Assembly: GCA_036648085.1 (NCBI GenBank)
Contig: JAVXJA010000005.1
Coordinates: 1 to 64,000 of the forward strand
Source: Terrisporobacter sp.
GTDB lineage: Bacteria > Bacillota > Clostridia > Peptostreptococcales > Peptostreptococcaceae
Length of the DNA: 64,000 bases
Direction of reading: 5' to 3'
In this document: positions 8,953 to 63,303 of the stretch, piece after piece
Layout: every line of letters begins with the position of its first letter
How positions within the stretch are numbered: the stretch's first letter is position 1
The notes under the pieces: model-generated
The model's input: only the letters and a program-made list of their open reading frames with translations
What the model was told of the DNA's origin: nothing
Database searches by the model: none
Made by a program: the position numbers and the translations under genes

Positions 8953-9323
8953 TAATTACATGTTGGTAACTTTATTTTTTCGTTTTTTATTAAACTTAAT
9001 AAATATATAGCTTCTTGGCGTGCATATATATCATAAATATTGTCAGTATCATAATTAAGAACCATCCTTAATGCATCAGAAACTCTATTACCTTTTATTA
9101 TTTTTAGTAGGGATTCAACCCTACTATAAATATCTAGTATATTTTCATCTAATAATAATGGATCATATTTACGTATATCGTATGTAAATTCATTTCTATA
9201 TTCTCCATTAGACAAAGAGTTTAAATTATCAAGGAATGTTTCCATATAAAGACCTACAAACCATGGACTTGCTGATTCAATACTTTCAACTAATTCATAA
9301 TCACTTAGAAATAAATTATTCAT
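8952..9323 (-). CDS. hypothetical protein
   Basis: 123-aa ORF with a terminator downstream. No recognisable motif. Confidence 0.4.
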   Translation of the reverse strand: MNNLFLSDYELVESIESASPWFVGLYMETFLDNLNSLSNGEYRNEFTYDIRKYDPLLLDENILDIYSRVESLLKIIKGNRVSDALRMVLNYDTDNIYDIYARQEAIYLLSLIKNEKIKLPTCN

Positions 9324-9488
9324 TTAAGACCTCCAGATACTAATTTAATTTTATTTATAGGATTTACGAGAAGGTTTATAATTACACATATTATTTTTGT
9401 GGAAATATTTAACCTACTAAAAAATAAGTTGATTTATAAAAAATGAACAAAATAATAAATAGAAAATAATTATTTTAAGGAGGTACTT

Positions 9489-9701
9489 ATGAGTAATAGA
9501 ATGGTAGACCCAAATGCTAAATCAGCTTTAAATCAAATGAAAATGGAAATAGCAAATGAATTAGGCATTAATGACAGTGGTGGTGCAAACCTTACATCTT
9601 ATGAAAATGGAAAAATAGGTGGTGATTTAGGGGGATTAATGAGTAAACAGTTAGTAAAAATGGGAGAAGAAGAATTAATAAGACAATATTATAATAAATG
9701 A
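9489..9701 (+). CDS. ssp: small acid-soluble spore protein, alpha/beta type
   Basis: 70 aa. Two conserved SASP blocks (KMEIANELGI and GGxLTSxxNGKIGGDLGGLMSKQLV). GGAGG ribosome-binding site. Terminator directly downstream. Confidence 0.85.
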   Translation: MSNRMVDPNAKSALNQMKMEIANELGINDSGGANLTSYENGKIGGDLGGLMSKQLVKMGEEELIRQYYNK

Positions 9702-9703
9702 TA

Positions 9704-9734
9704 AGGAGAGGCTAAAATATAGCCTCTTATTTTG
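9704..9734 (+). terminator. Rho-independent terminator
   Basis: agaggct-aaaatat-agcctct hairpin followed by tatttt. Confidence 0.6.
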
Positions 9735-9910
9735 ATGAAAAATATAATAACTATATCTAGAAAAGCTATTTTATACATAGATTTTTATTAAGAATACAGG
9801 ATAAAAAAAGTTTTCTTAAAAAAATATGAAATAAATGGGATTAGATGTAGAAATTATATATATTTGTGCTATAATCATCTTGTAGTAGAATACATGCTAA
9901 GGAGAAACAC

Positions 9911-10387
9911 ATGTTACACACATCACCAGGGTATATTTTAGTTAGAAGTTTTCCAGAATGTGCAGTTGTACTGCTTGTGGGATGCTACTTATTAAAAATT
10001 AAAGTACCAAAAAACATTATATTTAAAAAAACATTAATATTAGGATTAATGGTGTCATTAATCAGAACACTTCCGATTAATTTTGGAATACATACGATTT
10101 TATCTATGACGTGTACTTTATTCATGCTTGCAAATTTAACTAAAGATAGTTTTATAAATTGTATAATAGCAATATGTAAAATATTTATTTCGTTGATACT
10201 GAGTGAATTTGTTTATATATTCTTAGTTACATTTGTATTTAAAATTCCTGAAAGTAACTTGGTAGATAATTATACAGTAAGTAGTGCTATATTCACCCTA
10301 CCTTCACTTTTAATACTTGTTTTAATCTCCGTACTGATACAGTTTGTAACAGATAAGGTAAAGGAAAAGTTTTTAATAGAGGATTGA
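9911..10387 (+). CDS. polytopic membrane protein (about 5 TM), co-transcribed with agrB
   Basis: Hydrophobic throughout. Stop TGA overlaps the agrB ATG (ATGA-type overlap), suggesting translational coupling. Resembles the conserved membrane ORF preceding agrBD in other clostridial agr loci. Confidence 0.55.
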   Translation: MLHTSPGYILVRSFPECAVVLLVGCYLLKIKVPKNIIFKKTLILGLMVSLIRTLPINFGIHTILSMTCTLFMLANLTKDSFINCIIAICKIFISLILSEFVYIFLVTFVFKIPESNLVDNYTVSSAIFTLPSLLILVLISVLIQFVTDKVKEKFLIED

Positions 10388-11019
10388 TGGAAAGTCTTAC
10401 AGAAACGATTTCTTCAAAGTTAGCTTTATATATTGGTGAAAATACAAACAAGTCAGGTGAAGAGTTAGAAGTTTTAAAATACGGTATTTTTATATTTATG
10501 CATATTTTCATTGCAGTTGTTTTTACATTTATTTTTGGATTAATAACTAATACATTATTTGAAATATTAATTATTTCTTTAATAGGTGGTTTAATGAAAA
10601 GATGTTGTGGAGGAGTTCACTCATCTAGCCCAAATAGATGTATTATTACTGGAATTATAGTTTCATACGGTTTTTCCTTAATAGGTAAAAATATAATTAA
10701 CATAAATGGACATATAATTTATTTAATTGTAGGATTAATGTTAATTCATTCATTTTTTATAATTTATAAAAAGTGCCCTGTACCATCTAAAAATAAACCA
10801 TTAAAAAAAGAAGAAACAAGAAAAAAATTAAGAAAAAAAGCTTTTAAAAATTTCTTTATATGCACAATTGGGTTTATATTAAGCATGTTTTATACAAATC
10901 TTAATTACTTAGCAATATGTATGGTTTTAGGTTTGTATATGCAAAGTATATCTCTGACAGCAATAGGAACTAAGGTCATATTGCTTATAGATAAGCTATT
11001 GATAAAGGTGAGAGTATAA
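10387..11019 (+). CDS. agrB: accessory gene regulator protein B (AgrD-processing membrane peptidase)
   Basis: About 210 aa, multi-TM. Conserved AgrB catalytic region KRCCGGVHSSSPNRC (R..GG.H......C). Immediately followed by an agrD-like peptide gene. Confidence 0.8.
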   Translation: MESLTETISSKLALYIGENTNKSGEELEVLKYGIFIFMHIFIAVVFTFIFGLITNTLFEILIISLIGGLMKRCCGGVHSSSPNRCIITGIIVSYGFSLIGKNIININGHIIYLIVGLMLIHSFFIIYKKCPVPSKNKPLKKEETRKKLRKKAFKNFFICTIGFILSMFYTNLNYLAICMVLGLYMQSISLTAIGTKVILLIDKLLIKVRV

Positions 11020-11078
11020 TTTTTAGAAATTAACAAATTATTTGTTAATATAAATTATAATGTAAAGGAGATACTAAA

Positions 11079-11186
11079 ATGGGATTCTTAGTTAATTTTT
11101 TCAACAAAGTAGCTAACAGTGGAAGTACTTACTGTATGGCAATATTTTTTGAGCCAGAAGTACCTAAATCTTTAAGAGAAGAATAA
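11079..11186 (+). CDS. agrD: autoinducing peptide precursor AgrD (35 aa; absent from the ORF track)
   Basis: Translates to MGFLVNFFNKVANSGSTYCMAIFFEPEVPKSLREE. AAAGGAG ribosome-binding site 8 nt upstream. Short amphipathic leader, Cys five residues before the conserved acidic AgrB-recognition tail (EPEVPKSL; compare S. aureus EVEVPKEL). Predicted thiolactone ring is CMAIF. Terminator follows. Confidence 0.75.
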   Translation: MGFLVNFFNKVANSGSTYCMAIFFEPEVPKSLREE

Positions 11187-11191
11187 TAGGT

Positions 11192-11230
11192 AAAAAAACC
11201 ATAAGAATTTTTTCTTATGGTTTTTTCTTA
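11192..11230 (+). terminator. Rho-independent terminator of the agr operon
   Basis: aaaaaccataagaa-tttttt-cttatggttttttc hairpin plus T-run. Confidence 0.65.
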
Positions 11231-11260
11231 ATTTAGAGTCATTTATACTATTTGGAATAG

Positions 11261-13009
11261 GTGAATAAAATGAATAAATTTGATCAAGAAAGAAATATAA
11301 AAATACTGGAAATATTAGTAGGTTTAAAATTTTTATATATTATATTAGCCAGCTTAAATATAATTAGTTATTATAGTATATCCTTAGATATAAATAGCGC
11401 ATTACTATTAATTGTATCTGATTGTTGCATAGCATCATTTATGGTACTATGTTCAAAAATGATGTATGGAAATACTAATAAAAGTTTTCTGAATACGCCT
11501 AATATGTATAACATAATCGAAGCTAGTATAATATTATGTTTGTTTATTGCGTTAATGGCAAAAACAGGAGGAGTTAATAGCTCATTTAAATATATAGGGA
11601 TGATAATTATACTAATATCTTCTATTCAGTATAATAAAAAAATAAGTTTTTCAATTGCTTTAGCAGTATCCATGATAATAATGTCATTTAATTTTATAAA
11701 TGTAAATTCACCTCAAATAATTGATGAATTACAAGTTACGCATTATTTTGAGGGGGATATAATTTTAGTTAGTTCTTTATTAATAACTTCATTTATTCTA
11801 TCCCATTATATAGAGATAGAAAAAGATCATAACTTAAAATTAACGGAATTAGCCATTAAAGATGGTCTAACCGGTTTATATAACCATAGAAGTTTCCAAG
11901 ATGTACTAGATGAATATATGGTTAAAGCACATAAGGACAATAAAGAAGTTTCTCTTCTATTTATGGATATAGATAATTTCAAAAACTTTAATGATGTAAA
12001 TGGACATCAAAAAGGGGACTGGCTGCTTACAAGGTTAGGTAAAGTTTTAAAGGACACAGTAGGCGATGTTGGAGTAGTAACCCGTTATGGTGGAGAAGAA
12101 TTTGCCATATTATTGTATGATAAGACTGAAGAATTTGCTTTGGAATTAGGTGAAAGGATTCGTCAAAATATACAAATTACCTATTTTAAAGGTCAAGAAC
12201 ATCAACCTAATAAAAATATTACTGTTTCAATTGGTGTATCATCGTATCCAAATATGGCAGGAAACAAAAAAGAGCTGATTGAACTTGCGGATAATGCTCT
12301 ATATAGAGCTAAATCCTTTGATAAAAATAGAGTTGAAAGATACTATAACATATTAGATGAAATAGATAGTAGTATTAATAAGCAATCATTACAATCTATA
12401 GCAAGTATACTAAATAGAATAAATAAGAAAGATAAGTATACTTATGGTCATTCAGAGAGGGTTGTAATTTATGCTAAAAAATTTGCTAATCATTTAAATT
12501 TAAAAGAATCACAAAAAAAAGATTTACTTTTAGCAGCTTATTTACATGATATAGGTAAGTTGGAAATTTCCAAAGAGCTTTTAAATAAAAGAGAAAAGTT
12601 ATCACAAAGTGAATTTAATATATTAAAACAACATCCTACATTAGGATCAGATTTGGTTAGTTTAATTAAAGAATTTAAGGATGTAGAACCTATAATTAAG
12701 CATCATCATGAAAAATTTGATGGAAGTGGATATCCGAGTAACTTAGAAGGAACGTCCATACCATATTTAGCAAGGATACTTACTATTATAGATAGTTTTG
12801 ATGCTATGACATCTAAGAGGCCTTATAACGTTAGAAAAGATTACAACCAAGCGATTATTGAATTAAAACAATGTTCGGGGAGTCATTTTGATAGTAAGTT
12901 AGTGTCGAAATTTATAGAGATGTTGCAAGATGATATGCTAGAGAAAGAGTTACCAAAAGATTTAAATAATGTTTTACTGAAAAAAGATAAGCCTAATATG
13001 GGAGCTTAA
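11261..13009 (+). CDS. membrane-anchored c-di-GMP signalling protein: N-terminal polytopic sensor domain + GGDEF (diguanylate cyclase) + HD-GYP (phosphodiesterase)
   Basis: About 190-aa N-terminal region with 5-6 predicted TM helices. GGDEF domain with RYGGEEF active-site motif. C-terminal HD-GYP domain (HD at LHDIGK; HHEKFDGSGYP). Confidence 0.8.
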   Translation: MNKMNKFDQERNIKILEILVGLKFLYIILASLNIISYYSISLDINSALLLIVSDCCIASFMVLCSKMMYGNTNKSFLNTPNMYNIIEASIILCLFIALMAKTGGVNSSFKYIGMIIILISSIQYNKKISFSIALAVSMIIMSFNFINVNSPQIIDELQVTHYFEGDIILVSSLLITSFILSHYIEIEKDHNLKLTELAIKDGLTGLYNHRSFQDVLDEYMVKAHKDNKEVSLLFMDIDNFKNFNDVNGHQKGDWLLTRLGKVLKDTVGDVGVVTRYGGEEFAILLYDKTEEFALELGERIRQNIQITYFKGQEHQPNKNITVSIGVSSYPNMAGNKKELIELADNALYRAKSFDKNRVERYYNILDEIDSSINKQSLQSIASILNRINKKDKYTYGHSERVVIYAKKFANHLNLKESQKKDLLLAAYLHDIGKLEISKELLNKREKLSQSEFNILKQHPTLGSDLVSLIKEFKDVEPIIKHHHEKFDGSGYPSNLEGTSIPYLARILTIIDSFDAMTSKRPYNVRKDYNQAIIELKQCSGSHFDSKLVSKFIEMLQDDMLEKELPKDLNNVLLKKDKPNMGA

Positions 13010-13011
13010 TA

Positions 13012-13064
13012 AAAAGTCTTCTAAAGTATTTTATTATAATAATACTTTAGAAGACTTTTTTTGC
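13012..13064 (+). terminator. Rho-independent terminator
   Basis: Long perfect hairpin aagtcttctaaagtatt...aatactttagaagactt followed by TTTTTTT. Confidence 0.7.
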
Positions 13065-13096
13065 TACAATAAAGTTGTACTTATAATTAACGTAGT

Positions 13097-13876
13097 ATGA
13101 AAGGGGATAACATGGGGGATATAGGGGTTAAATTTAAATATTTAGATGAATATAATGTAGAGTTATTAAAAAAAGTGAATCAAAATATAAATAATTTGAA
13201 GGATGAAAAACTTAATAGTGAGATAGTATCAATATTTGAAGATATAACAAATGAAATAGATGATAGTGTTTATACTGCAAAAGAAAGTAAAAAAATATTA
13301 ATTTCTTTGTTTTATGCTTTAGAAATAATAAGAGAAAATATAGAAAAAAATGGTATCGTTAGACAGAATGAATTTTTTGAGGAAGAAAAAAATCAAGATT
13401 CTATAGCGAAAGAGCTATTAGAAGGAATGATAATATCCGCGAAAAATGAATATGAAGAAAATAAGTTAAGGTATTATGGTTATTTATTAGGAAATATATT
13501 TTTTCAAAATGATTTATATAAAGATGAAAGTAATAGATTAATTAGGATAATTAGAACCTTATCTTATTGCCAAATTAGGTTAATAAATATGTATGTAATT
13601 TCACAGACTATACAAGTTCCTATTTTAAAAAGAGAAGACTATATAAAATGTGGAATACATGATTATAAATTATTAGGTATTTTACAAGACACTTTAGATA
13701 TGATACAAAAGGGAATATTAAATGGAAGTGGTAAACTAGTTTTAGATGTAGTTCAAATAAATCCATCAAAAATAAAGGTTCAAGGATGTGGAACTCTTCT
13801 TTATAATTTGATGTGCTTGAATAAAATGCCGTATGATGAATTAGAAGACTTATTAGAGATTTTATCAAATAAATAA
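13097..13876 (+). CDS. hypothetical protein (no recognisable domain)
   Basis: 259-aa ORF with a terminator on each side, forming its own transcription unit. Confidence 0.45.
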   Translation: MKGDNMGDIGVKFKYLDEYNVELLKKVNQNINNLKDEKLNSEIVSIFEDITNEIDDSVYTAKESKKILISLFYALEIIRENIEKNGIVRQNEFFEEEKNQDSIAKELLEGMIISAKNEYEENKLRYYGYLLGNIFFQNDLYKDESNRLIRIIRTLSYCQIRLINMYVISQTIQVPILKREDYIKCGIHDYKLLGILQDTLDMIQKGILNGSGKLVLDVVQINPSKIKVQGCGTLLYNLMCLNKMPYDELEDLLEILSNK

Positions 13877-13886
13877 TAGTTAAAAG

Positions 13887-13920
13887 TAAATGCTCTTAAT
13901 ATTAAGGCATTTATTTTTTT
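13887..13920 (+). terminator. Rho-independent terminator
   Basis: aaatgctcttaatattaaggcattt hairpin followed by TTTTTTT. Confidence 0.6.
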
Positions 13921-13965
13921 GAAAAGAATTGTAAAAAAAAATAAATATAAATATAAAAAACAAAG

Positions 13966-13979
13966 TGCAAGCGGTTGCA
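13966..13979. promoter_or_regulatory. candidate catabolite-responsive element (cre) upstream of ptsG
   Basis: TGCAAGCGGTTGCA fits the cre consensus TGNAANCGNWNNCA. Palindromic. Confidence 0.35.
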
Positions 13980-13987
13980 TAAAATTA

Positions 13988-14015
13988 TTGACACCAATAT
14001 TATTCCCATGATAGT
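13988..14015 (+). promoter_or_regulatory. candidate sigma-A promoter of ptsG
   Basis: TTGACA, 16-17 nt spacer, then GATAGT. Confidence 0.3.
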
Positions 14016-14112
14016 ATCGATAGTAAGATAATCATTATTAATATGATAAAAATAGATTTTTATAAAAGAAATTATAAAACAATTAATATTGTGGGGGGAG
14101 AGGAAGATAGTT

Positions 14113-16200
14113 ATGAAAGACAAGATATTTGGTGTTTTACAACGTGTAGGAAGATCATTCATGCTACCAATTGCTATTTTACCAGTAGCAGGTTTATTTT
14201 TAGGAATAGGCGGATCATTTACAAATGAAACAATGTTAAATGCATATGGATTAATGGGTGTTATGGGACCAGGAACTCCTATAAATGCATTTTTAACAGT
14301 TTTAAGTAATGCGGGAGATATAGTATTTGCAAACTTACCTTTGCTATTTGCAATGGGTGTTGCAATAGGTATGGCCAAAAAAGAAAAAGAAGTTGCAGCT
14401 TTATCAGGAGCTATAGCGTTCTTAATTATGCACGCATCAATAGGTGCAATGATAAATATTAATGGTGGAACTGAAGCTATGCTTGATGGTTCTACAACAA
14501 GTGTTTTAGGTATAACATCACTTCAAATGGGCGTATTTGGTGGGATGATAGTAGGACTTGGAGTATCGGCATTACATAATCGTTTCTATAAGATAGAACT
14601 TCCGCAAGTATTATCATTCTTTGGTGGAACTAGATTTGTTCCTATTATATCTGCAATAGTTTACTTATTAGTTGGTATAGCAATGTTCTATGCATGGCCT
14701 CCAGTACAAAATGCTATATATTCTGTAGGTGATTTAGTAAGAGATTCAGGGTATGGAGGAACTTGGTTATACGGATTTATGGAAAGAGCATTAATTCCTT
14801 TTGGACTTCATCATGTATTCTACTTACCATTTTGGCAAACTGCTGTTGGTGGTACGGCAATGGTAGGAGGACAATTAATAGAAGGTGCTCAAAACATATT
14901 CTTCGCGGAACTTGCAACTCCAGGAATTACAGAATTCAGTGTAGAAGCTACTAGATTTATGTCGGGTAAATTCCCACTTATGATATTTGGTTTACCAGGA
15001 GCAGCGCTTGCTATGTACAAATGTGCCAAACCAGAAAAACGTAAGGTTGCTGGTGGATTATTAATATCTGCAGCTTTAACATCTATGTTAACAGGTATAA
15101 CTGAGCCAATAGAATTTACATTCTTATTTGTTGCTCCAATATTATATGTTATTCATTGCATATTTGCAGGAGCAGCTTACATGCTAATGCACATGTTAAA
15201 TGTTGGAGTTGGTATGACATTCTCTGGAGGATTAATAGATTTATCATTATTTGGAATATTACAAGGAAATGCTAAAACTCATTGGATAAATATAATAGTG
15301 GTAGGATTAATGTACTTTGCAGTATATTACTTCTTATTTACATTCTTAATAAAGAAATTTAACTTCAAAACTCCAGGAAGAGAAGACGATGATGTAGAGG
15401 TTAAACTTTACACAAGAGCAGATGTAAATGCTAAAAAAGACGGTAATGTAGACAATCAAAATAATCAAGTATCTGCCAGGATATTAAAAGGTCTAGGTGG
15501 TCAAGTTAACTTAACTGACTTAGATTGTTGCGCTACAAGACTTCGTGTTACAGTAAAAGATTCTAGTAAAGTAAGTGAATCTTTATTAAAATCAAGTGGA
15601 GCAGCAGGCGTTATAATAAAAGGTAATGGTGTGCAAGTTATATATGGACCACGTGTTACAGTTATAAAGTCTAATTTAGAAGATTTTATATCAAGTGGTG
15701 CAATAATTGAAATAGAAGAAACTCCAGTTGTTGAAAATAAAAAGATAGAAGCTCATATTATAGTAGCACCAATAGAAGGTAATGTTGTATCTCTTGAAAA
15801 AGTAGGAGATGGAGTATTCTCAGAAGGTATGTTAGGTAAAGGTATAGCGATAGAACCAAGTGTAGGTAGAGCTGTATCTCCTGTAAATGGAACTATTTCA
15901 ACTGTATTCGATACAAAACATGCTATTGGTTTAACTGCATATGATGGAGCTGAAATTTTAATTCATATAGGATTGGATACTGTAAAGCTAAATGGAGAGC
16001 ATTTTGATACTCATGTTAAAGCAGGAGATAAAGTAAAGGTAGGAGATCTTTTAGTAGAATTTAATATAGAAAAAATAAAAGAAGCTGGATATCCAACAAT
16101 AACACCTGTAATAATAACTAATACTGATAGTTATGAAGATATTGAAACATTAGTAAATGGATCAGTTAAAGAAAAAGATAAATTAGTATTAGTTAGATAA
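14113..16200 (+). CDS. ptsG: PTS glucose-family transporter, fused EIICBA
   Basis: Start MKDKIFGVLQR with GGGGGGAGAGG ribosome-binding site. The ORF-track start at 14089 is further upstream. EIIC membrane domain. EIIB motif NLTDLDCCATRLR. C-terminal EIIA-Glc domain (GIAIEP...HIGLDTV). Confidence 0.9.
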   Translation: MKDKIFGVLQRVGRSFMLPIAILPVAGLFLGIGGSFTNETMLNAYGLMGVMGPGTPINAFLTVLSNAGDIVFANLPLLFAMGVAIGMAKKEKEVAALSGAIAFLIMHASIGAMININGGTEAMLDGSTTSVLGITSLQMGVFGGMIVGLGVSALHNRFYKIELPQVLSFFGGTRFVPIISAIVYLLVGIAMFYAWPPVQNAIYSVGDLVRDSGYGGTWLYGFMERALIPFGLHHVFYLPFWQTAVGGTAMVGGQLIEGAQNIFFAELATPGITEFSVEATRFMSGKFPLMIFGLPGAALAMYKCAKPEKRKVAGGLLISAALTSMLTGITEPIEFTFLFVAPILYVIHCIFAGAAYMLMHMLNVGVGMTFSGGLIDLSLFGILQGNAKTHWINIIVVGLMYFAVYYFLFTFLIKKFNFKTPGREDDDVEVKLYTRADVNAKKDGNVDNQNNQVSARILKGLGGQVNLTDLDCCATRLRVTVKDSSKVSESLLKSSGAAGVIIKGNGVQVIYGPRVTVIKSNLEDFISSGAIIEIEETPVVENKKIEAHIIVAPIEGNVVSLEKVGDGVFSEGMLGKGIAIEPSVGRAVSPVNGTISTVFDTKHAIGLTAYDGAEILIHIGLDTVKLNGEHFDTHVKAGDKVKVGDLLVEFNIEKIKEAGYPTITPVIITNTDSYEDIETLVNGSVKEKDKLVLVR

Positions 16201-19136: not shown

Positions 19137-20204
19137 GTGAAGAAGATAAGTAAATCATACTATTGTGAAAGTTGCGGAGGTATAATGGCTTTTGATGCAA
19201 CTGCACAATGTTTAAAATGTCCAAATTGTGAAACAGAAGTTGAAATAGAAAATAACCCAAACAATGTAAGAGAGCATAGGCTTGATATGCATGCTATGAA
19301 TAGAATCAAAGTGGAAGAAAAAACATCCACTAGTATGGAATGTGAAGGATGTGGTGCAAAGGTGGAAGTAGATGCCACTAGCAGTGCTACAAGTTGTCCT
19401 TATTGTGGATCTCATTATGTTTTAGCAAAAAAACAAATTGAGTCTATCATTCCTGATGGTGTAATACCTTTTAAAATTAGCAAAAATGATGTAGAATCTA
19501 TATTTAGAAACTGGATAAAAGGAAGGTGGCTTGCACCCAATATATTAAAAACTTTATATCAAAAGGATAAAGTACAAGGTATATACATGCCATACTGGAC
19601 ATTTGATGCAGATACAAGTGTACATTATACTGCTATGGGTGGTATAAACTATGAAGTAGAATATGAAGATGATGAAGGAAATAAACATACAAGGATAGAA
19701 ACAAATTGGTATCCAACAAGTGGATATATAAAAGAATTCTTTGATGACGTATTAGTTAGGGCTTCAGATAAATTAAGTGAAGGTCTTTTACAATGTATAG
19801 AACCATATAATACAAAGAATACAGCATCATATTCACCTGATTATATGTCAGGGTACTCTGCAGAAGTATATACTATAGAATTAAAATCTGCTCATACTGA
19901 TGCAATGAACAAGATGGAAAGAGAATTAGTGAATTTGGCAGAACTAGATGTTCTTAGAAGATATGATAGAGTAAGAGGGGTACATCTGAATACGTCATTT
20001 AATAACGAAACTTATAAACACATTTTCTTACCTATTTATTCAACTGCTTATACATATAAAGATAAACATTATAATGTTTTAATAAATGGTGAAAATGGAA
20101 ATATAAAAGGAGAATATCCAAAGAGTGTAGCTAAGATAATTGCTATTGTCGTTGTAGTTTTAATAATAATTATATTGATTTATGTAGCAACATCTTCAAA
20201 TTAA
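19137..20204 (+). CDS. PspA-associated zinc-ribbon protein with C-terminal TM anchor (B. subtilis YdjG-like)
   Basis: Several CxxC pairs (CESCGG...CPNCE, CEGCGA...CPYCG). C-terminal hydrophobic helix. Start codon uncertain (GTG at 19137 or ATG at 19185). Confidence 0.6.
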   Translation: MKKISKSYYCESCGGIMAFDATAQCLKCPNCETEVEIENNPNNVREHRLDMHAMNRIKVEEKTSTSMECEGCGAKVEVDATSSATSCPYCGSHYVLAKKQIESIIPDGVIPFKISKNDVESIFRNWIKGRWLAPNILKTLYQKDKVQGIYMPYWTFDADTSVHYTAMGGINYEVEYEDDEGNKHTRIETNWYPTSGYIKEFFDDVLVRASDKLSEGLLQCIEPYNTKNTASYSPDYMSGYSAEVYTIELKSAHTDAMNKMERELVNLAELDVLRRYDRVRGVHLNTSFNNETYKHIFLPIYSTAYTYKDKHYNVLINGENGNIKGEYPKSVAKIIAIVVVVLIIIILIYVATSSN

Positions 20205-21508: not shown

Positions 21509-22480
21509 ATGAAAAACAAAAGAAATAGCGTAGAGTTAGTGTCACCAATAGGGAGATGTTGTGTGCACGTGGATTTAAGAAATCCAAGTAATGAATATAT
21601 TGAGGCAAAGTTGTCACCTTTTGCTTCATATAAAGGGGACAATCATAAAATCAATAGACCAAAGAGAACCACATCCAAATCAGAAGTTGATTTTTTATTG
21701 GAAAAGGGACATGTAGGTGAAATAGAAAAAATGATTTTAGTAGCAATAAACCATTTGGTTTTTGCCACATCTCTGCAAATTACAACATATATCAATAAGA
21801 CAGGTATAAAGATTGAATCAAAGTCTGTAGCAAGAAAACTGACTAGATTAAAGGAAAAAAGCTTTGTAAAACAAATAGAATTTATATCAGAAAATAGTAT
21901 AAGTTCTTATAAAGCGTATTATTTAGGATATCACGGAATTGGTCTTTTGAGAGCATTAGATAGAAAAACTTATTCTCAAGGATATGTAAGTGAAATAAAA
22001 ACTGCTAAAATAAAATGTTTATTAGCATCTAATCAATTACTAACACAGGTTATGAATGGGGAAGCAGATTTTAAAGTATCTAAGATAATATTAAATGAAA
22101 GTATAAGAAATTGTATAGTGAGACCGCAATCCATATTAAATACTAATAGTAAATCATATCTTGTGGAGGTTGTAAGAAAAACAGAGAATTGGAAAGAAGA
22201 TTTTGTAAATAAACTTGCAAGATATGAAAACGTTATTGAAAATTATGAAACTTTAAATATTAAATTTAAAGTTAAACCTACCTTAATAATACAAGGTGAA
22301 TCATATGATCATATGATTGAAATTATGAGTACAACCAAAGAAAGAGAAGAAAACTCTAATATAAATATTATTTATACATATGATAGAATTCTCCTATATA
22401 ATGTAGAAGAAGCTTTCTTCTCACTAGAAGAAAAACAAGTTAAAAAGAACTTATTTTCATTTTTATTTAGTAAATGTTAA
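21509..22480 (+). CDS. hypothetical protein (possible winged-helix region), orphan ORF in an AT-rich island
   Basis: 323-aa ORF with poly-G ribosome-binding site (GGGGGGG). Terminator downstream. No confident family assignment. Confidence 0.4.
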   Translation: MKNKRNSVELVSPIGRCCVHVDLRNPSNEYIEAKLSPFASYKGDNHKINRPKRTTSKSEVDFLLEKGHVGEIEKMILVAINHLVFATSLQITTYINKTGIKIESKSVARKLTRLKEKSFVKQIEFISENSISSYKAYYLGYHGIGLLRALDRKTYSQGYVSEIKTAKIKCLLASNQLLTQVMNGEADFKVSKIILNESIRNCIVRPQSILNTNSKSYLVEVVRKTENWKEDFVNKLARYENVIENYETLNIKFKVKPTLIIQGESYDHMIEIMSTTKEREENSNINIIYTYDRILLYNVEEAFFSLEEKQVKKNLFSFLFSKC

Positions 22481-27467: not shown

Positions 27468-28193
27468 TTATTTATATTTATTAATTGATTCTACAAGGTG
27501 ATTCAATTTGAATTTTGGATATATAGGTCTACGGTTATATAATAGTGTATTTTTTTTATATTCTTTATACTGTTCTGTTTCATCTTCAAAATATTCATTG
27601 ATACCTATTTTAAACATATCTTCTTCATCACCAAAATTCATATATTTTAAATAGTCATCTATTAAAGATGAATTAGCTTCTGTTAATTGAATAAATTCAT
27701 TTTCAATGAATCTTAATTGTTTTAGTAATCCCTTAGTTGCTCGTTGCATTTCATCATTTAAATATTTAACATCTCTTACTGAATTAGTAAGCTCATTCAT
27801 AATACTATATTGAGTATCTCTTATTTTTCTAATAAAAACCTCAGATAAGAAGAATAATTCACCTAGTTTTTTTTCTTTTTCAAAGAATCCAGGTAAAAAT
27901 AATCTTACTGAAGATAAGTCAGATTTTTTGTCAACTGTCAATTGAGTTCCGTGATTAAAGATGATTTTTAATGGGAACTTTAAATCGTCAATATTGGCTT
28001 CCTTTTTTAAAATTTCGTTCTCAACAATAAACAATTTACTATTTTGAAAAATAACAAAACTAGAATTATAGTTATAGAACAATGTTTTAGTAGGAACTTT
28101 ATCTCCAAAATTAAAATCACGAATACCATCATTACATCTAAATATATCACCGTCGTTACTTAAAACAGGATAATAAAAACATTGAAATTTCAT
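27468..28193 (-). CDS. hypothetical protein
   Basis: 241-aa ORF with GGTGGGG ribosome-binding site. No recognisable domain. Confidence 0.4.
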   Translation of the reverse strand: MKFQCFYYPVLSNDGDIFRCNDGIRDFNFGDKVPTKTLFYNYNSSFVIFQNSKLFIVENEILKKEANIDDLKFPLKIIFNHGTQLTVDKKSDLSSVRLFLPGFFEKEKKLGELFFLSEVFIRKIRDTQYSIMNELTNSVRDVKYLNDEMQRATKGLLKQLRFIENEFIQLTEANSSLIDDYLKYMNFGDEEDMFKIGINEYFEDETEQYKEYKKNTLLYNRRPIYPKFKLNHLVESINKYK

Positions 28194-34510: not shown

Positions 34511-35161
34511 ATGAATTTTAAAAAAGAGAATTCTCTATGTGAAAATCAGTTTATTGAAGAACATTTCCCTTTTATTATTAAATCCATAAGCAAGATTACT
34601 AAAAGATATGTTTCCATAGAAAATGATGAAGAGTTTAGTATAGGAGTGCTTGCTTTTCATGAGGCAATGAAAAAACATAGCGAAGAAAAAGGTCCATTCT
34701 TACCTTTTGCTAATTTAGTTATAAGTAGCAGAGTTAAGAATTATTTAATGAGAGAAAATAAATATAGATTAAACCCATCACTTGAAAAACTAAAAGAAGA
34801 GGGTATTGATTTTGGAGAAGAAGTTACAAGCCCAGTAGAAGATCAAAATCACCTTAAAGAGGAGATACAAAATTTAAAGTTATACATAGATGAGTTTGGA
34901 TTTACATTTGAAGATTTAGTAGATGATGCACCAAAGCATAAGAAAACTAGAGAAAATGCTATAAACTTATCACAAAAAGTTAGTAAAGAAAAAACATTAG
35001 TAGATTTTATGTATGAGAAGAAAAGACTTCCTATTAAAAAAATTTGTCTACAATTTAATATTACAGAAAAAATTATTAAAGGAAGCAAGAAATTTATAAT
35101 AACAGTAATAATTATATTTGATAAAAACTTTAGAAATTTAAAATTATGGATTAAGAGGTAG
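34511..35161 (+). CDS. sigI: RNA polymerase sigma factor, SigI family
   Basis: Strong similarity to the B. subtilis SigI core (DEEFSIGVLAFHEAMKKH...PFLPFANLVISSRVKNY). Confidence 0.8.
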   Translation: MNFKKENSLCENQFIEEHFPFIIKSISKITKRYVSIENDEEFSIGVLAFHEAMKKHSEEKGPFLPFANLVISSRVKNYLMRENKYRLNPSLEKLKEEGIDFGEEVTSPVEDQNHLKEEIQNLKLYIDEFGFTFEDLVDDAPKHKKTRENAINLSQKVSKEKTLVDFMYEKKRLPIKKICLQFNITEKIIKGSKKFIITVIIIFDKNFRNLKLWIKR

Positions 35162-60805: not shown

Positions 60806-61219
60806 TTAAAATGGAATTTCACTTTCAGATATTTCACCTTCAAATATAGCTTCATTATCGAAAATTGCATCTGCACTTTTAATATTATTATTACTTTCAG
60901 TTTTAGATGTTAAAAAGTCGAATTTGCTACATCTAACTATAATTTTCTTTACATTTTCACCAGATGATGATACATATTTTTCTAATCTTAATTGACCTTC
61001 AACTCCGAATAATTTACCTTTCTCCATATACTGACAAAAAATTTCGGCATGTTTCCCCCATAATTCACAGTCAATAAAATCGGCACCATATTGACCTTGA
61101 GAATTTTTATATTCACGGCTAACAGCAATTGTGAATTTAGTTATAGGAGTATTTTTTTCACCTACATATTTAATTTCAGGATTATGACATAACCTACCTG
61201 TTAAAATAATCTTATTCAT
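60806..61219 (-). CDS. ssb: single-stranded DNA-binding protein (short paralogue)
   Basis: OB-fold MNKIILTGRL...FTIAV...DFIDCELWGK...LFGVEGQLR. C-terminal acidic tail ending IPF. GGAGG ribosome-binding site before ATG at 61219. The ORF-track start at 61267 is too far upstream. Confidence 0.75.
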   Translation of the reverse strand: MNKIILTGRLCHNPEIKYVGEKNTPITKFTIAVSREYKNSQGQYGADFIDCELWGKHAEIFCQYMEKGKLFGVEGQLRLEKYVSSSGENVKKIIVRCSKFDFLTSKTESNNNIKSADAIFDNEAIFEGEISESEIPF

Positions 61220-61410
61220 TTTTACCTCCAAATTTATTTTAAATTCAAGTATTAAAATTATAGACAAGCATAGGTTTGTTTATACAAAAAAACATATGTG
61301 AAATTTATTTCCATATAAAGTAAGGATAAATGATCAAAACAGTGATATAATTAATTGGAGTGAGGAATTTTTTATACAATTATGAACTATGGGAAATAAG
61401 GGGTTTTATT

Positions 61411-63303
61411 ATGAGAAATGATATATTTGAAAATATAATAAAAAATAGTAAAATAGCCTATTCTAAGATAAATTTCACAAAAAATAAAGAAGACAAATAT
61501 ACGGGAATAAGTGTTATTGAACAAAATAAGGAATTTGAAAAAGTAGCAAGACTAGTAAGCGATAATAATATATTAAGTAATGATGCTGCTGAGCTATTAA
61601 TTAATAATTGGATTCGTAGGACATATACAGCTGATGAATTTGATTTATTAATAAAAGATGTAATAAACAATGGACAGGCAAGAATAGAATACTCAGTAGA
61701 ATTGAAAGATAAAAAATTAATTGTAGATATATATAATTTAGAGAAGTACATCTTACTTATATATAATCTAGAAGGTGATAAAGCAAGGTCGGATAATAAG
61801 CTAAAGTCATATAACTGGGCTAAGGATTTAGATGGAAAGTACATAGTTGCTTATAAGGATTATTATAATTATTTAACTGAACAAAATGAAAAACATAGAG
61901 GTGAAATAATTGGTAAAAAAGACATAGAAATATGGAGTCCAGAAGAAGTAAAAATATTTAGAGAACATGAAAATGAAGTAATCTCAAAAAGATTCTTGAA
62001 AACTTATTATGAAATTATAACAGATAAAAAGGGACGAAAAAAATATATGGAGTGTACTCTTTGGCCGTTATTTGATAAAGATAATAATATTATAGGTACA
62101 AGAGGAACAAGCATTGAAATTAATGATAAGTTAGCTTTTGAAAAAAGTATGGAGCAAAATGAAGAAAGTTTTAGGGAAATAACAAAATATTGTGAATCAG
62201 TCTTTATTATAAGGGATAAAGTAAGAGCAACTTATGTAAGTCCATCTTTTAAAAACATATTTGAGCAAGAACCAGAGGATTTATATCATGATATAGATAA
62301 ACTAGATGAATATTTTAGAAGAGTAGAATTAGAGAATAATTACATAAGTGATGAATTTAAATTTAATGAATCAAATGAAGGTATAGGAAAAGTAAAACTG
62401 GATAATGGAAAAGAAAAATGGATATGGTATAAATTTTTACCGATTAAAAATTCTAAGGGAAATATAACGAAAAGAATAGGAATACTAACAGATGTAACAG
62501 AAAAGAAAAAACTTGAAGAAGAAAAAAATCAACTTGAATTAGATTTTTTTGCAAATTTATCACACGAATTAAGAACACCAATCAATCTTATATCAAGTAC
62601 AATTCAGCTAATCAAAATGAAGTTAAATAAAAAATCACCAGAAGAAATTGACAAGCTATACAACTATATGGATATTATGGAAATTAACAGTCTTAGACTA
62701 TTGAAATTAATAAACAGCCTACTAGATTCTTCAAGAATTGATGCCGGTTACGTTAAATTTGATCCAGTAAGTGGAGACATAATTAAATTCATTGAAGATA
62801 TCTGTGAATCAACAATTGATTTTGCGAAAGTGAATAATATGGAAATAATTTTTGATACTAATAGTGAGGAAGAAATAGTACTATTTGATCCGGATATTGT
62901 TGAAAGAACTATGTTGAACTTATTATCTAACGCAATAAAATTTAATAGAATTAATGGAATGATATATGTGAATATTTATATAAAAGATGATGAAATTAAA
63001 ATTGTAGTAAAAGATGAAGGTATAGGCATACCAAAGGAAAATAAACATTTAATTTTTGATAGATTTGAACAAGTAAGTAGTAGAAATAGAGCAGAGAAAC
63101 AAGGAAGTGGTATAGGCCTTTATTTAGTTAAATCATTAGTTGAATTACATGGTGGAAGTATTAGAGTTGAAAGTGAAATTAATAAAGGTAGTGAATTTGT
63201 AGTATGTTTACCTAAGTTAATACAGAAATCAAGTGAGCAAAATATGATGGGAAATAATGACTTTATATATGCTGAGGCTAATGTTGAATTTTCTGATATA
63301 TAA
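61411..63303 (+). CDS. cytoplasmic PAS-domain sensor histidine kinase (orphan, no adjacent response regulator)
   Basis: No TM. PAS-like regions. HisKA H-box FFANLSHELRTPIN. HATPase_c N/G boxes (LLSNAIKFN, DEGIGIP, GSGIGL). ATG 61411 after an AAGGGG ribosome-binding site. Confidence 0.8.
   Translation: MRNDIFENIIKNSKIAYSKINFTKNKEDKYTGISVIEQNKEFEKVARLVSDNNILSNDAAELLINNWIRRTYTADEFDLLIKDVINNGQARIEYSVELKDKKLIVDIYNLEKYILLIYNLEGDKARSDNKLKSYNWAKDLDGKYIVAYKDYYNYLTEQNEKHRGEIIGKKDIEIWSPEEVKIFREHENEVISKRFLKTYYEIITDKKGRKKYMECTLWPLFDKDNNIIGTRGTSIEINDKLAFEKSMEQNEESFREITKYCESVFIIRDKVRATYVSPSFKNIFEQEPEDLYHDIDKLDEYFRRVELENNYISDEFKFNESNEGIGKVKLDNGKEKWIWYKFLPIKNSKGNITKRIGILTDVTEKKKLEEEKNQLELDFFANLSHELRTPINLISSTIQLIKMKLNKKSPEEIDKLYNYMDIMEINSLRLLKLINSLLDSSRIDAGYVKFDPVSGDIIKFIEDICESTIDFAKVNNMEIIFDTNSEEEIVLFDPDIVERTMLNLLSNAIKFNRINGMIYVNIYIKDDEIKIVVKDEGIGIPKENKHLIFDRFEQVSSRNRAEKQGSGIGLYLVKSLVELHGGSIRVESEINKGSEFVVCLPKLIQKSSEQNMMGNNDFIYAEANVEFSDI

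Follow-up and report, generated by a model that had tools for sequence, protein, structure and literature searches.

A Terrisporobacter agrD gene in a conserved cassette with a candidate six-transmembrane GGDEF-HD-GYP receptor for its peptide

In the agrBDCA system of Staphylococcus aureus, AgrB processes a short AgrD precursor in which, as in the one described here, an amphipathic leader is followed by a five-residue ring anchored on Cys and by an acidic tail containing Pro. A hypervariable block that extends over AgrB, AgrD and the sensor part of AgrC is the classic pattern of the S. aureus specificity groups. Orphan agrBD pairs without agrCA are common in clostridia, and the receptors of their peptides are an acknowledged open question. 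The Agr-like locus of Clostridium perfringens (CPE1563-CPE1562-agrB-agrD) has hypothetical-protein genes ahead of agrBD and no adjacent two-component system (PMC2706048, PMC4963840), and the receptor of AgrD1 in C. difficile 'remains elusive' (PMC10602386). Here, we describe a locus that resembles both, from a 64,000-nucleotide stretch of an uncultured Terrisporobacter sp. (GenBank assembly GCA_036648085.1, contig JAVXJA010000005.1, positions 1 to 64,000, forward strand; the whole stretch is called the window below). A 35-codon open reading frame (ORF) downstream of agrB in this window had earlier been read, from the letters alone, as an unannotated gene for an AgrD autoinducing-peptide (AIP) precursor.

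As judged from the ORF and its homologs, it is almost certainly a genuine agrD. Taken alone, this gene is ordinary, a member of a known family that has already been annotated automatically. The explanation that best covers the locus as a whole, and that we consider moderately probable, is that agrD lies in a cassette together with its receptor, a six-transmembrane (6TM) protein carrying GGDEF and HD-GYP domains for the synthesis and degradation of cyclic di-GMP (c-di-GMP). The cassette consists of up158, agrB, agrD, a terminator and the gene for the 6TM-GGDEF-HD-GYP protein (the sensor gene), arranged in the window as follows.

9911-10387, forward strand: up158, the first cassette gene, encoding a 158-residue membrane protein with five predicted transmembrane helices
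10387-11019, forward strand: agrB, encoding a 210-residue membrane peptidase/cyclase (PF04647, 116 bits, 1.4e-33; start as in the NCBI annotation)
11064-11070, forward strand: AAAGGAG ribosome-binding site of agrD, 8 nt before its ATG
11079-11186, forward strand: agrD, encoding a 35-residue precursor (ATG at 11079, stop codon ending at 11186; identified by TIGR04223, homologs and codon constraint)
11193-11226, no strand assigned: terminator-type hairpin with a 15-bp stem and flanking A-run and T-run, separating agrD from the sensor gene
11270-11845, forward strand: 6TM sensor domain (to about residue 192, counted from the ATG at 11270), candidate receptor module for the AIP
11855-12331, forward strand: GGDEF (diguanylate cyclase) domain (PF00990, 9.8e-42; intact GGEEF)
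12419-12901, forward strand: HD-GYP (c-di-GMP phosphodiesterase) domain (PF13487 HD_5, 2.5e-39; intact HD, HHE and GYP)

The agrD gene and its predicted peptide

The 35 codons of the ORF translate to MGFLVNFFNKVANSGSTYCMAIFFEPEVPKSLREE, with start, stop and sequence as first read. It follows agrB on the same strand at a measured distance of 59 nt (60 in the sequence-only reading), counted from the end of the agrB ORF including its stop codon at 11019, and both the ribosome-binding site ahead of it and the T-run terminator behind it were recovered. The precursor is laid out as an amphipathic leader (residues 1 to about 15), a core ...S-T-Y-C19-M-A-I-F23 and a recognition tail F24-EPEVPKSLREE. 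The cysteine thus stands six residues before EPEVPKSL and not five, as had been counted, F24 being the first residue of the tail. Ten residues separate Cys19 from the conserved Pro29, a spacing shared by the AgrD peptides of S. aureus and C. perfringens. The helical hydrophobic moment of residues 1-13 is 0.48 as compared to a shuffle mean of 0.24, a value that 2.4% of the shuffles reach, in agreement with the short amphipathic leader proposed from the letters.

Comparison with AgrD profiles, which the sequence-only reading had suggested as a check, gave a divided answer. The product matches NCBIfam TIGR04223 over residues 2-33 (32.9 bits, cutoff 19, E=5.2e-8) and does not pass the Pfam model for staphylococcal AgrD, PF05931 (15.6 vs 22.7 bits). 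An identical peptide is named 'cyclic lactone autoinducer peptide' by NCBI in metagenome-assembled genomes of Terrisporobacter sp. (MEG0855152.1 and others, 14 contigs), so that the gene was missing only from the ORF track supplied with the sequence and not from public annotation; 'unannotated' holds in the former sense alone.

AgrD homologs were gathered via AgrB loci rather than with the 35-residue peptide as query. AgrB homologs were aligned, and a pattern scan of one genome per species then yielded 23 loci from Terrisporobacter, Romboutsia, Asaccharospora, Faecalimicrobium and unnamed Peptostreptococcaceae (single loci are given L numbers below). A metagenome scan seeded with the sensor protein and not with AgrB added 26 further loci of 25-61% G+C content (GC). 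An agrD-type ORF occupies the same position after agrB in 23/23 genome loci and in every further locus with enough sequence, remote or metagenomic, about 48 loci in total; in all 23 genome loci it has its own G-rich Shine-Dalgarno sequence and ATG 60-120 nt past agrB. The consensus of these 23 is leader-(A/S/T)-S-(T/S)-(Y/F/C/H)-C-x-x-x-F-(F/Y)-E-P-E-V-P-K-S-L-R-E-E. Across 25 loci, C19, F23, E25, E27, P29, S31 and L32 are invariant and each is encoded by two to four synonymous codons, while the three positions inside the ring (C-x-x-x-F) each hold five to eight different, mostly hydrophobic residues. Synonymous codons at invariant residues, combined with a variable ring, mark a translated AgrD whose specificity is diversifying.

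An untranslated chance frame has some initial plausibility in DNA of 27% GC, where small ORFs are common (55 of at least 25 residues in 9 kb), and the Pfam AgrD model below its cutoff would fit such a frame. We nevertheless regard this explanation as negligibly probable. TIGR04223 is passed, a Shine-Dalgarno sequence precedes the ORF in every locus, and its retention after agrB with synonymous substitutions at the invariant residues is a conservation pattern that refutes a chance frame in practice. The AgrD identity first proposed is borne out by the profile match, the AgrB encoded upstream, the conserved synteny and the constraint at the protein level.

By the known AgrB/AgrD mechanism, the leader would anchor the precursor at the membrane, and AgrB would recognise the tail F-EPEVPKSLREE, cleave after Phe23 and join the Phe23 carbonyl to the Cys19 thiol, giving a five-membered ring C-M-A-I-F. 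A separate protease would then take off the leader and, if no N-terminal tail were left, the thiolactone would be expected to turn into an all-amide cyclopeptide, as it does in other clostridia. The ring CMAIF (C19-M-A-I-F23) proposed earlier follows from the conserved register. Of the mature form proposed with it, the tailed thiolactone xTYCMAIF, we can say that it is one option, and that a tail-less cyclo(CMAIF) is at least as likely, because the native clostridial AIPs so far characterised have no N-terminal tail and convert from thiolactone to homodetic all-amide cyclopeptide by an S-to-N acyl shift (PMC8251862). The likely natural signal of C. perfringens is likewise a bare five-residue ring (PMC7492741). 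The computed [M+H]+ is 566.2465 for tail-less cyclo(CMAIF), and 729.3099, 830.3575 and 917.3896 for the forms tailed with Y, TY and STY. The CMAIF ring was absent from our literature searches, as was anything on AIPs of Terrisporobacter or Romboutsia, with subscription journals mostly outside the coverage of these searches.

The conserved cassette and its candidate receptor

When the 46 window ORFs of at least 150 residues were scanned with Pfam, no LytTR/AgrA protein and no AgrC-type kinase was found. The only kinase in the window, a PAS-HisKA protein (61360-63303), is encoded 50 kb away, and the adjacent AgrC and AgrA that characterise canonical agrBDCA are missing at the locus. Behind the terminator of agrD begins the sensor gene (ATG at 11270, end at 13009, forward strand), which encodes about 190 residues of polytopic membrane domain followed by GGDEF and HD-GYP. 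The GGEEF, HDIGK, HHE and GxGYP motifs are present in all 23 sensor orthologs, and the protein is accordingly predicted to have both a c-di-GMP-synthesising and a c-di-GMP-degrading domain with intact motifs. As a separate observation, the RxxD inhibition site five residues before GGEEF is present in Romboutsia-type orthologs (IRQGDVVARYGGEEF) and replaced in all Terrisporobacter orthologs (VGDVGVVTRYGGEEF in the window), which suggests that product inhibition was lost in this genus.

The association of this protein with agrBD is close. An ORF of 555-589 residues at the same offset after agrD, with 6TM, GGEEF and HD-GYP intact, was found in 22/22 complete loci selected by AgrB, and a gene corresponding to up158 stands upstream of agrB in all 23 genome loci. 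The flanking genes differ between genera, so the four-gene cassette is conserved as a unit. From the opposite direction, when the membrane domain alone was used for an exhaustive HMMER search against 1.84e9 representative proteins, only 20 relatives were recovered, the closer of which are GGDEF-HD-GYP proteins. Remote GGDEF-type relatives (24-30% identity) have agrB and an AgrD ORF directly upstream in 2/2 cases, one of these AgrDs being C. perfringens-like (...TSACWWFMYQPEEPASLKDK). Among the metagenome sensor loci, all 20 whose contigs reach far enough upstream encode AgrB and AgrD immediately before the sensor, usually behind a gene of the up158 family; GGDEF is present in all of these sensors, and HD-GYP too wherever the contig extends far enough. 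Three metagenome contigs of 61% GC (L037, L038, L040) carry the full cassette with an AgrD ...SSACIWYLYQPEEPEALSDK. Presence of the full cassette in high-GC organisms implies a taxonomic range far wider than the low-GC Peptostreptococcaceae.

The weakest relatives of the sensor domain are HisKA-HATPase_c histidine kinases. With a profile made from the 23 sensor domains of GGDEF type and no others, three such kinases scored E-values of 6e-26, 8e-23 and 8e-14 (scaled to the library of 1.84e9), and nothing else matched among the 1098 ORF segments of all loci. Two of the three have an up158-agrB-agrD cassette next to them. In Alkaliphilus metalliredigens QYMF (L026; CP000724.1; 4001-5416, 6516-7787), one gene separates kinase and cassette; on a metagenome contig (L027, 3-3530), the kinase gene adjoins the cassette in divergent orientation, and agrD is followed by a truncated ORF that starts with the same sensor N-terminus. 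Sensor-agrBD adjacency, having been found from both search directions, thus holds both ways and across a change of output domain. Two further observations concern these kinases. In L027, a single agrBD is flanked by two sensor paralogs. Both kinases are orphan HisKA-HATPase_c proteins, with no response regulator visible nearby, and orphan HisKA kinases feed Spo0A in clostridia, so that this type of sensor-kinase might link an AIP directly to sporulation.

The sensor domains have motifs in common, among them TGGxxSx(Y/F)K, S(S/T)(I/L/V)QY and YF(Q/E)xD(I/L)xL. The window protein passes no Pfam sensor-domain threshold, the PilS-like 6TM model PF25323 scoring 12.5 vs 27 bits (E=0.12); the only member that passes it, and just so, is the kinase-type homolog P0178 (28.3 vs 27 bits). 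A fold search indicated resemblance to the 6TM-plus-signalling-helix modules of membrane nucleotide cyclases. Sequence and fold searches gave no AgrC-type match to the sensor domain, predicted AgrC/VirS sensor domains not being among the folds compared. The least conserved stretches of the sensor coincide with the predicted outward-facing loops.

The PilS-like similarity, weak as it is, would suit a 6TM protein that works with the Agr machinery within the membrane, either monitoring unprocessed AgrD or AgrB activity in the manner of PilS or controlling AIP production or export. Such a role has a precedent in the Agr-linked kinase RgaS of C. difficile, which activates agrB1D1 transcription without sensing AgrD1 (PMC10602386), and up158 and AgrB do diverge along with the sensor. 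We consider it improbable. Sequence variation is highest in the loops that are predicted to face outward, the divergence of the sensor tracks the ring residues of the mature peptide, and an Rfam scan of window positions 9000-14200 found no riboswitch (including those for c-di-GMP) or other known RNA in the cassette through which c-di-GMP could feed back on agrBD.

The manner in which the cassette has diverged also bears on the receptor question. Relative to the window protein, sensors within Terrisporobacter are 59-71% identical in the membrane domain and 78-84% in the catalytic domains; across genera, the figures are 23-33% and 44-66%. Pairs of loci with the same AIP have similar identities in the 6TM and catalytic parts (94/90% for L005/L007, 88/86% for L015/L016, 94/96% for L011/L020), whereas in pairs with different AIPs at equal catalytic identity the 6TM value falls to 46-47% (e.g., 47 vs 85% for L008/L014). 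Between L008 and L014, sliding-window DNA identity is 85-96% in the flanks, drops to 53-74% over the stretch that begins with up158 and closes with the 6TM segment, and is back at 77-90% in the GGDEF-HD-GYP part, while the 6TM segments of L005 and L007, which share an AIP, are 93-97% identical. Up158, AgrB, AgrD and the 6TM domain diversify together. A hypervariable block that ends at the junction of sensor and catalytic domains is what would be expected if the 6TM domain recognises the peptide.

We therefore propose, from these comparisons of sequence, that the secreted peptide would bind to the downstream protein at its hypervariable 6TM domain, that this domain would shift the balance between c-di-GMP synthesis by GGEEF and degradation by HD-GYP, and that cell density would in this way be converted directly into a second-messenger level and not into phosphorylation of a response regulator. 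It is somewhat probable that the 6TM-GGDEF-HD-GYP protein is the cognate AIP receptor and sets c-di-GMP directly in this manner.

Several observations weigh against this proposal. A partial Mantel test of AIP ring against 6TM domain was significant (r=0.20, p=0.003), and GGDEF tested given HD-GYP, as a control for linkage, gave a signal of similar strength (r=0.20, p=0.006); linkage thus explains part of the covariation between ring and 6TM domain, and we do not rely on the statistic. One pair with the same AIP, L008/L012, has a 6TM identity of only 66%. The kinase-type homolog L028 does not adjoin agrB. The terminator between agrD and the sensor gene means that co-transcription is not required. 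The mature form of the AgrD peptide is itself uncertain, its N-terminal cut not being predictable from sequence, and the failure of the precursor to pass the staphylococcal Pfam model counts on the same side. In C. perfringens, finally, the established receptor is not a neighbour of agrBD at all; it is VirS, an unlinked AgrC-like kinase (PMC7492741).

These points lend substance to an alternative in which the AIP is sensed by an AgrC- or VirS-type kinase elsewhere in the genome and the 6TM protein is only a conserved neighbour, which might be a target of the system, modulate AIP production or sense a different membrane signal. In its favour are the example of C. perfringens, whose agrBD stands without an adjacent two-component system while the unlinked VirS binds the peptide (PMC4963840, PMC7492741), the conserved terminator between agrD and the sensor gene, and the confounding of the covariation statistic by linkage. 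We nevertheless think it rather unlikely, since adjacency is near-perfect both ways in about 45 loci of 24-61% GC with differing flanks, the sensor module stays beside agrBD when its output is a histidine kinase, the hypervariable block stops at the sensor/catalytic junction inside one gene, and the 64-kb window encodes no such kinase.

Further elements of the cassette and window

An AgrB identical over its 210 residues (P0005) is deposited in NCBI as 'accessory gene regulator B family protein'. All 21 homologs compared share the motif G75-G76-x-H78...P82-x-R84-C85 without change, and it contains, in H78 and C85, the catalytic His/Cys pair of S. aureus AgrB; the window enzyme is predicted from these residues to be catalytically intact. 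The stop codon of up158 overlaps the agrB start (TGATG). No Pfam or NCBIfam family matched the up158 product, which has R12, P15-E16, R52, P55, H61-T62, S98-E99 and P131-S132 as invariant polar residues, and a profile built from it also matches genes 5' of agrB in L024, L026 and L027. The up158 gene belongs to the hypervariable block, and its variation is correlated with that of the AIP ring (r=0.28, p=0.0006); in these agr systems it may be a missing component for maturation, export or immunity.

Two non-coding elements were noted besides the ribosome-binding site and the terminator.

9848-9875, forward strand: promoter-like site (TAGAAA, 16-nt spacer, TATAAT, upstream TG), a consensus match only, of a kind no commoner than expected from shuffled sequence
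11029-11049, no strand assigned: near-perfect palindrome ATTAACAAAT-T-ATTTGTTAAT in the agrB-agrD spacer

The promoter-like site lies ahead of the cassette and after the terminator (9706-9728) of a SASP gene. Palindromes related to that in the spacer (ATATTAACAAA...TTTGTTAATAT) occupy the same place in Terrisporobacter loci L003-L007, and other genera have other AT-rich hairpins; the element could form an RNA stem-loop with a role in processing or stability, or could be a protein-binding site or operator. The hairpin after agrD has an equivalent in all 25 loci examined, with a core AACCATAAG...CTTATGGTT conserved across genera and compensatory changes in L006, L009, L012 and L022. The sensor gene may have a transcript of its own or may depend entirely on read-through of this terminator. 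Conservation of the stem beyond the needs of a plain terminator raises the possibility that it might also be a regulated attenuator of read-through into the sensor gene.

Elsewhere in the window, a 259-residue protein without a credible family match (13097-13876, forward strand) is encoded between the sensor gene and a gene for a PTS glucose-type transporter, and has counterparts of 60-63% identity at the same position in Terrisporobacter loci only. A Replic_Relax domain protein (21509-22480, forward strand) and, far off, a lone SSB gene (60806-61267, reverse strand) may be remnants of an integrated mobile element. Three ORFs had no Pfam match at the thresholds used: 355 residues at 19137-20204 (forward strand), located between a PspA/IM30 gene and an SPFH/Band-7 gene, 241 residues at 27468-28193 (reverse strand) and 216 residues at 34511-35161 (forward strand).

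Relation to known agr systems and implications

The locus is apparently an example of a widespread, so far undescribed agr variant. Our literature searches, with subscription journals mostly outside their coverage, found no description of this sensor family or the up158 family, and no paper in which agrBD is connected with a GGDEF/HD-GYP sensor. In its broadest form, the proposal is of a clostridial agr variant in which a co-diversifying 6TM receptor is fused to GGDEF-HD-GYP or, in some lineages, to HisKA, in which up158 has a specificity-linked part in maturation or export, and which would supply candidate receptors for orphan agrBD loci; from the sequences compared, we see the chances of this wider proposal as evenly balanced. 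A narrow 6TM family that is nearly always beside agrBD and co-diversifies with the peptide is a concrete receptor candidate. If the proposal is true, a single protein would link peptide quorum sensing to c-di-GMP in Gram-positive anaerobes. Motility, biofilm formation, sporulation and toxin-related behaviours are all under c-di-GMP control. The many natural pairs of peptide and sensor would also be material for specificity studies.

Beyond the organisation of its precursor, the locus shares with S. aureus agr a hypervariable block that takes in agrB, agrD and the membrane-sensor part of the gene behind them and stops at the boundary between sensor and output. It differs in having no AgrC (an HPK10 kinase) and no AgrA (LytTR) within 64 kb and a 6TM-GGDEF-HD-GYP gene after agrD, and also in the presence of up158 before agrB, in the terminator after agrD and in the shorter precursor of 35 residues. 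The tail of C. perfringens AgrD, ...QPEEPKSLRDE, is very near to EPEVPKSLREE, and C. perfringens-like AgrDs are encoded in many of the cassette loci found here. Part of the agr-dependent regulation in C. perfringens does not go through VirS/VirR (PMC4963840), so that a second receptor is conceivable there.

Closest by taxonomy is agr1 of C. difficile, a member of the Peptostreptococcaceae that likewise has an agrB1D1 pair without cognate agrCA (PMC10602386). The AgrB-pattern scan of one genome per species recovered no C. difficile locus. The tail of C. difficile AgrD1 differs from EPEVPKSLREE. Compared with the 6TM modules of membrane adenylyl cyclases, of Pseudomonas aeruginosa ImcA, of PilS and of Vibrio CqsS, the sensor family of the window is set apart by its almost invariable linkage to agrBD and by the peptide ligand proposed for it.

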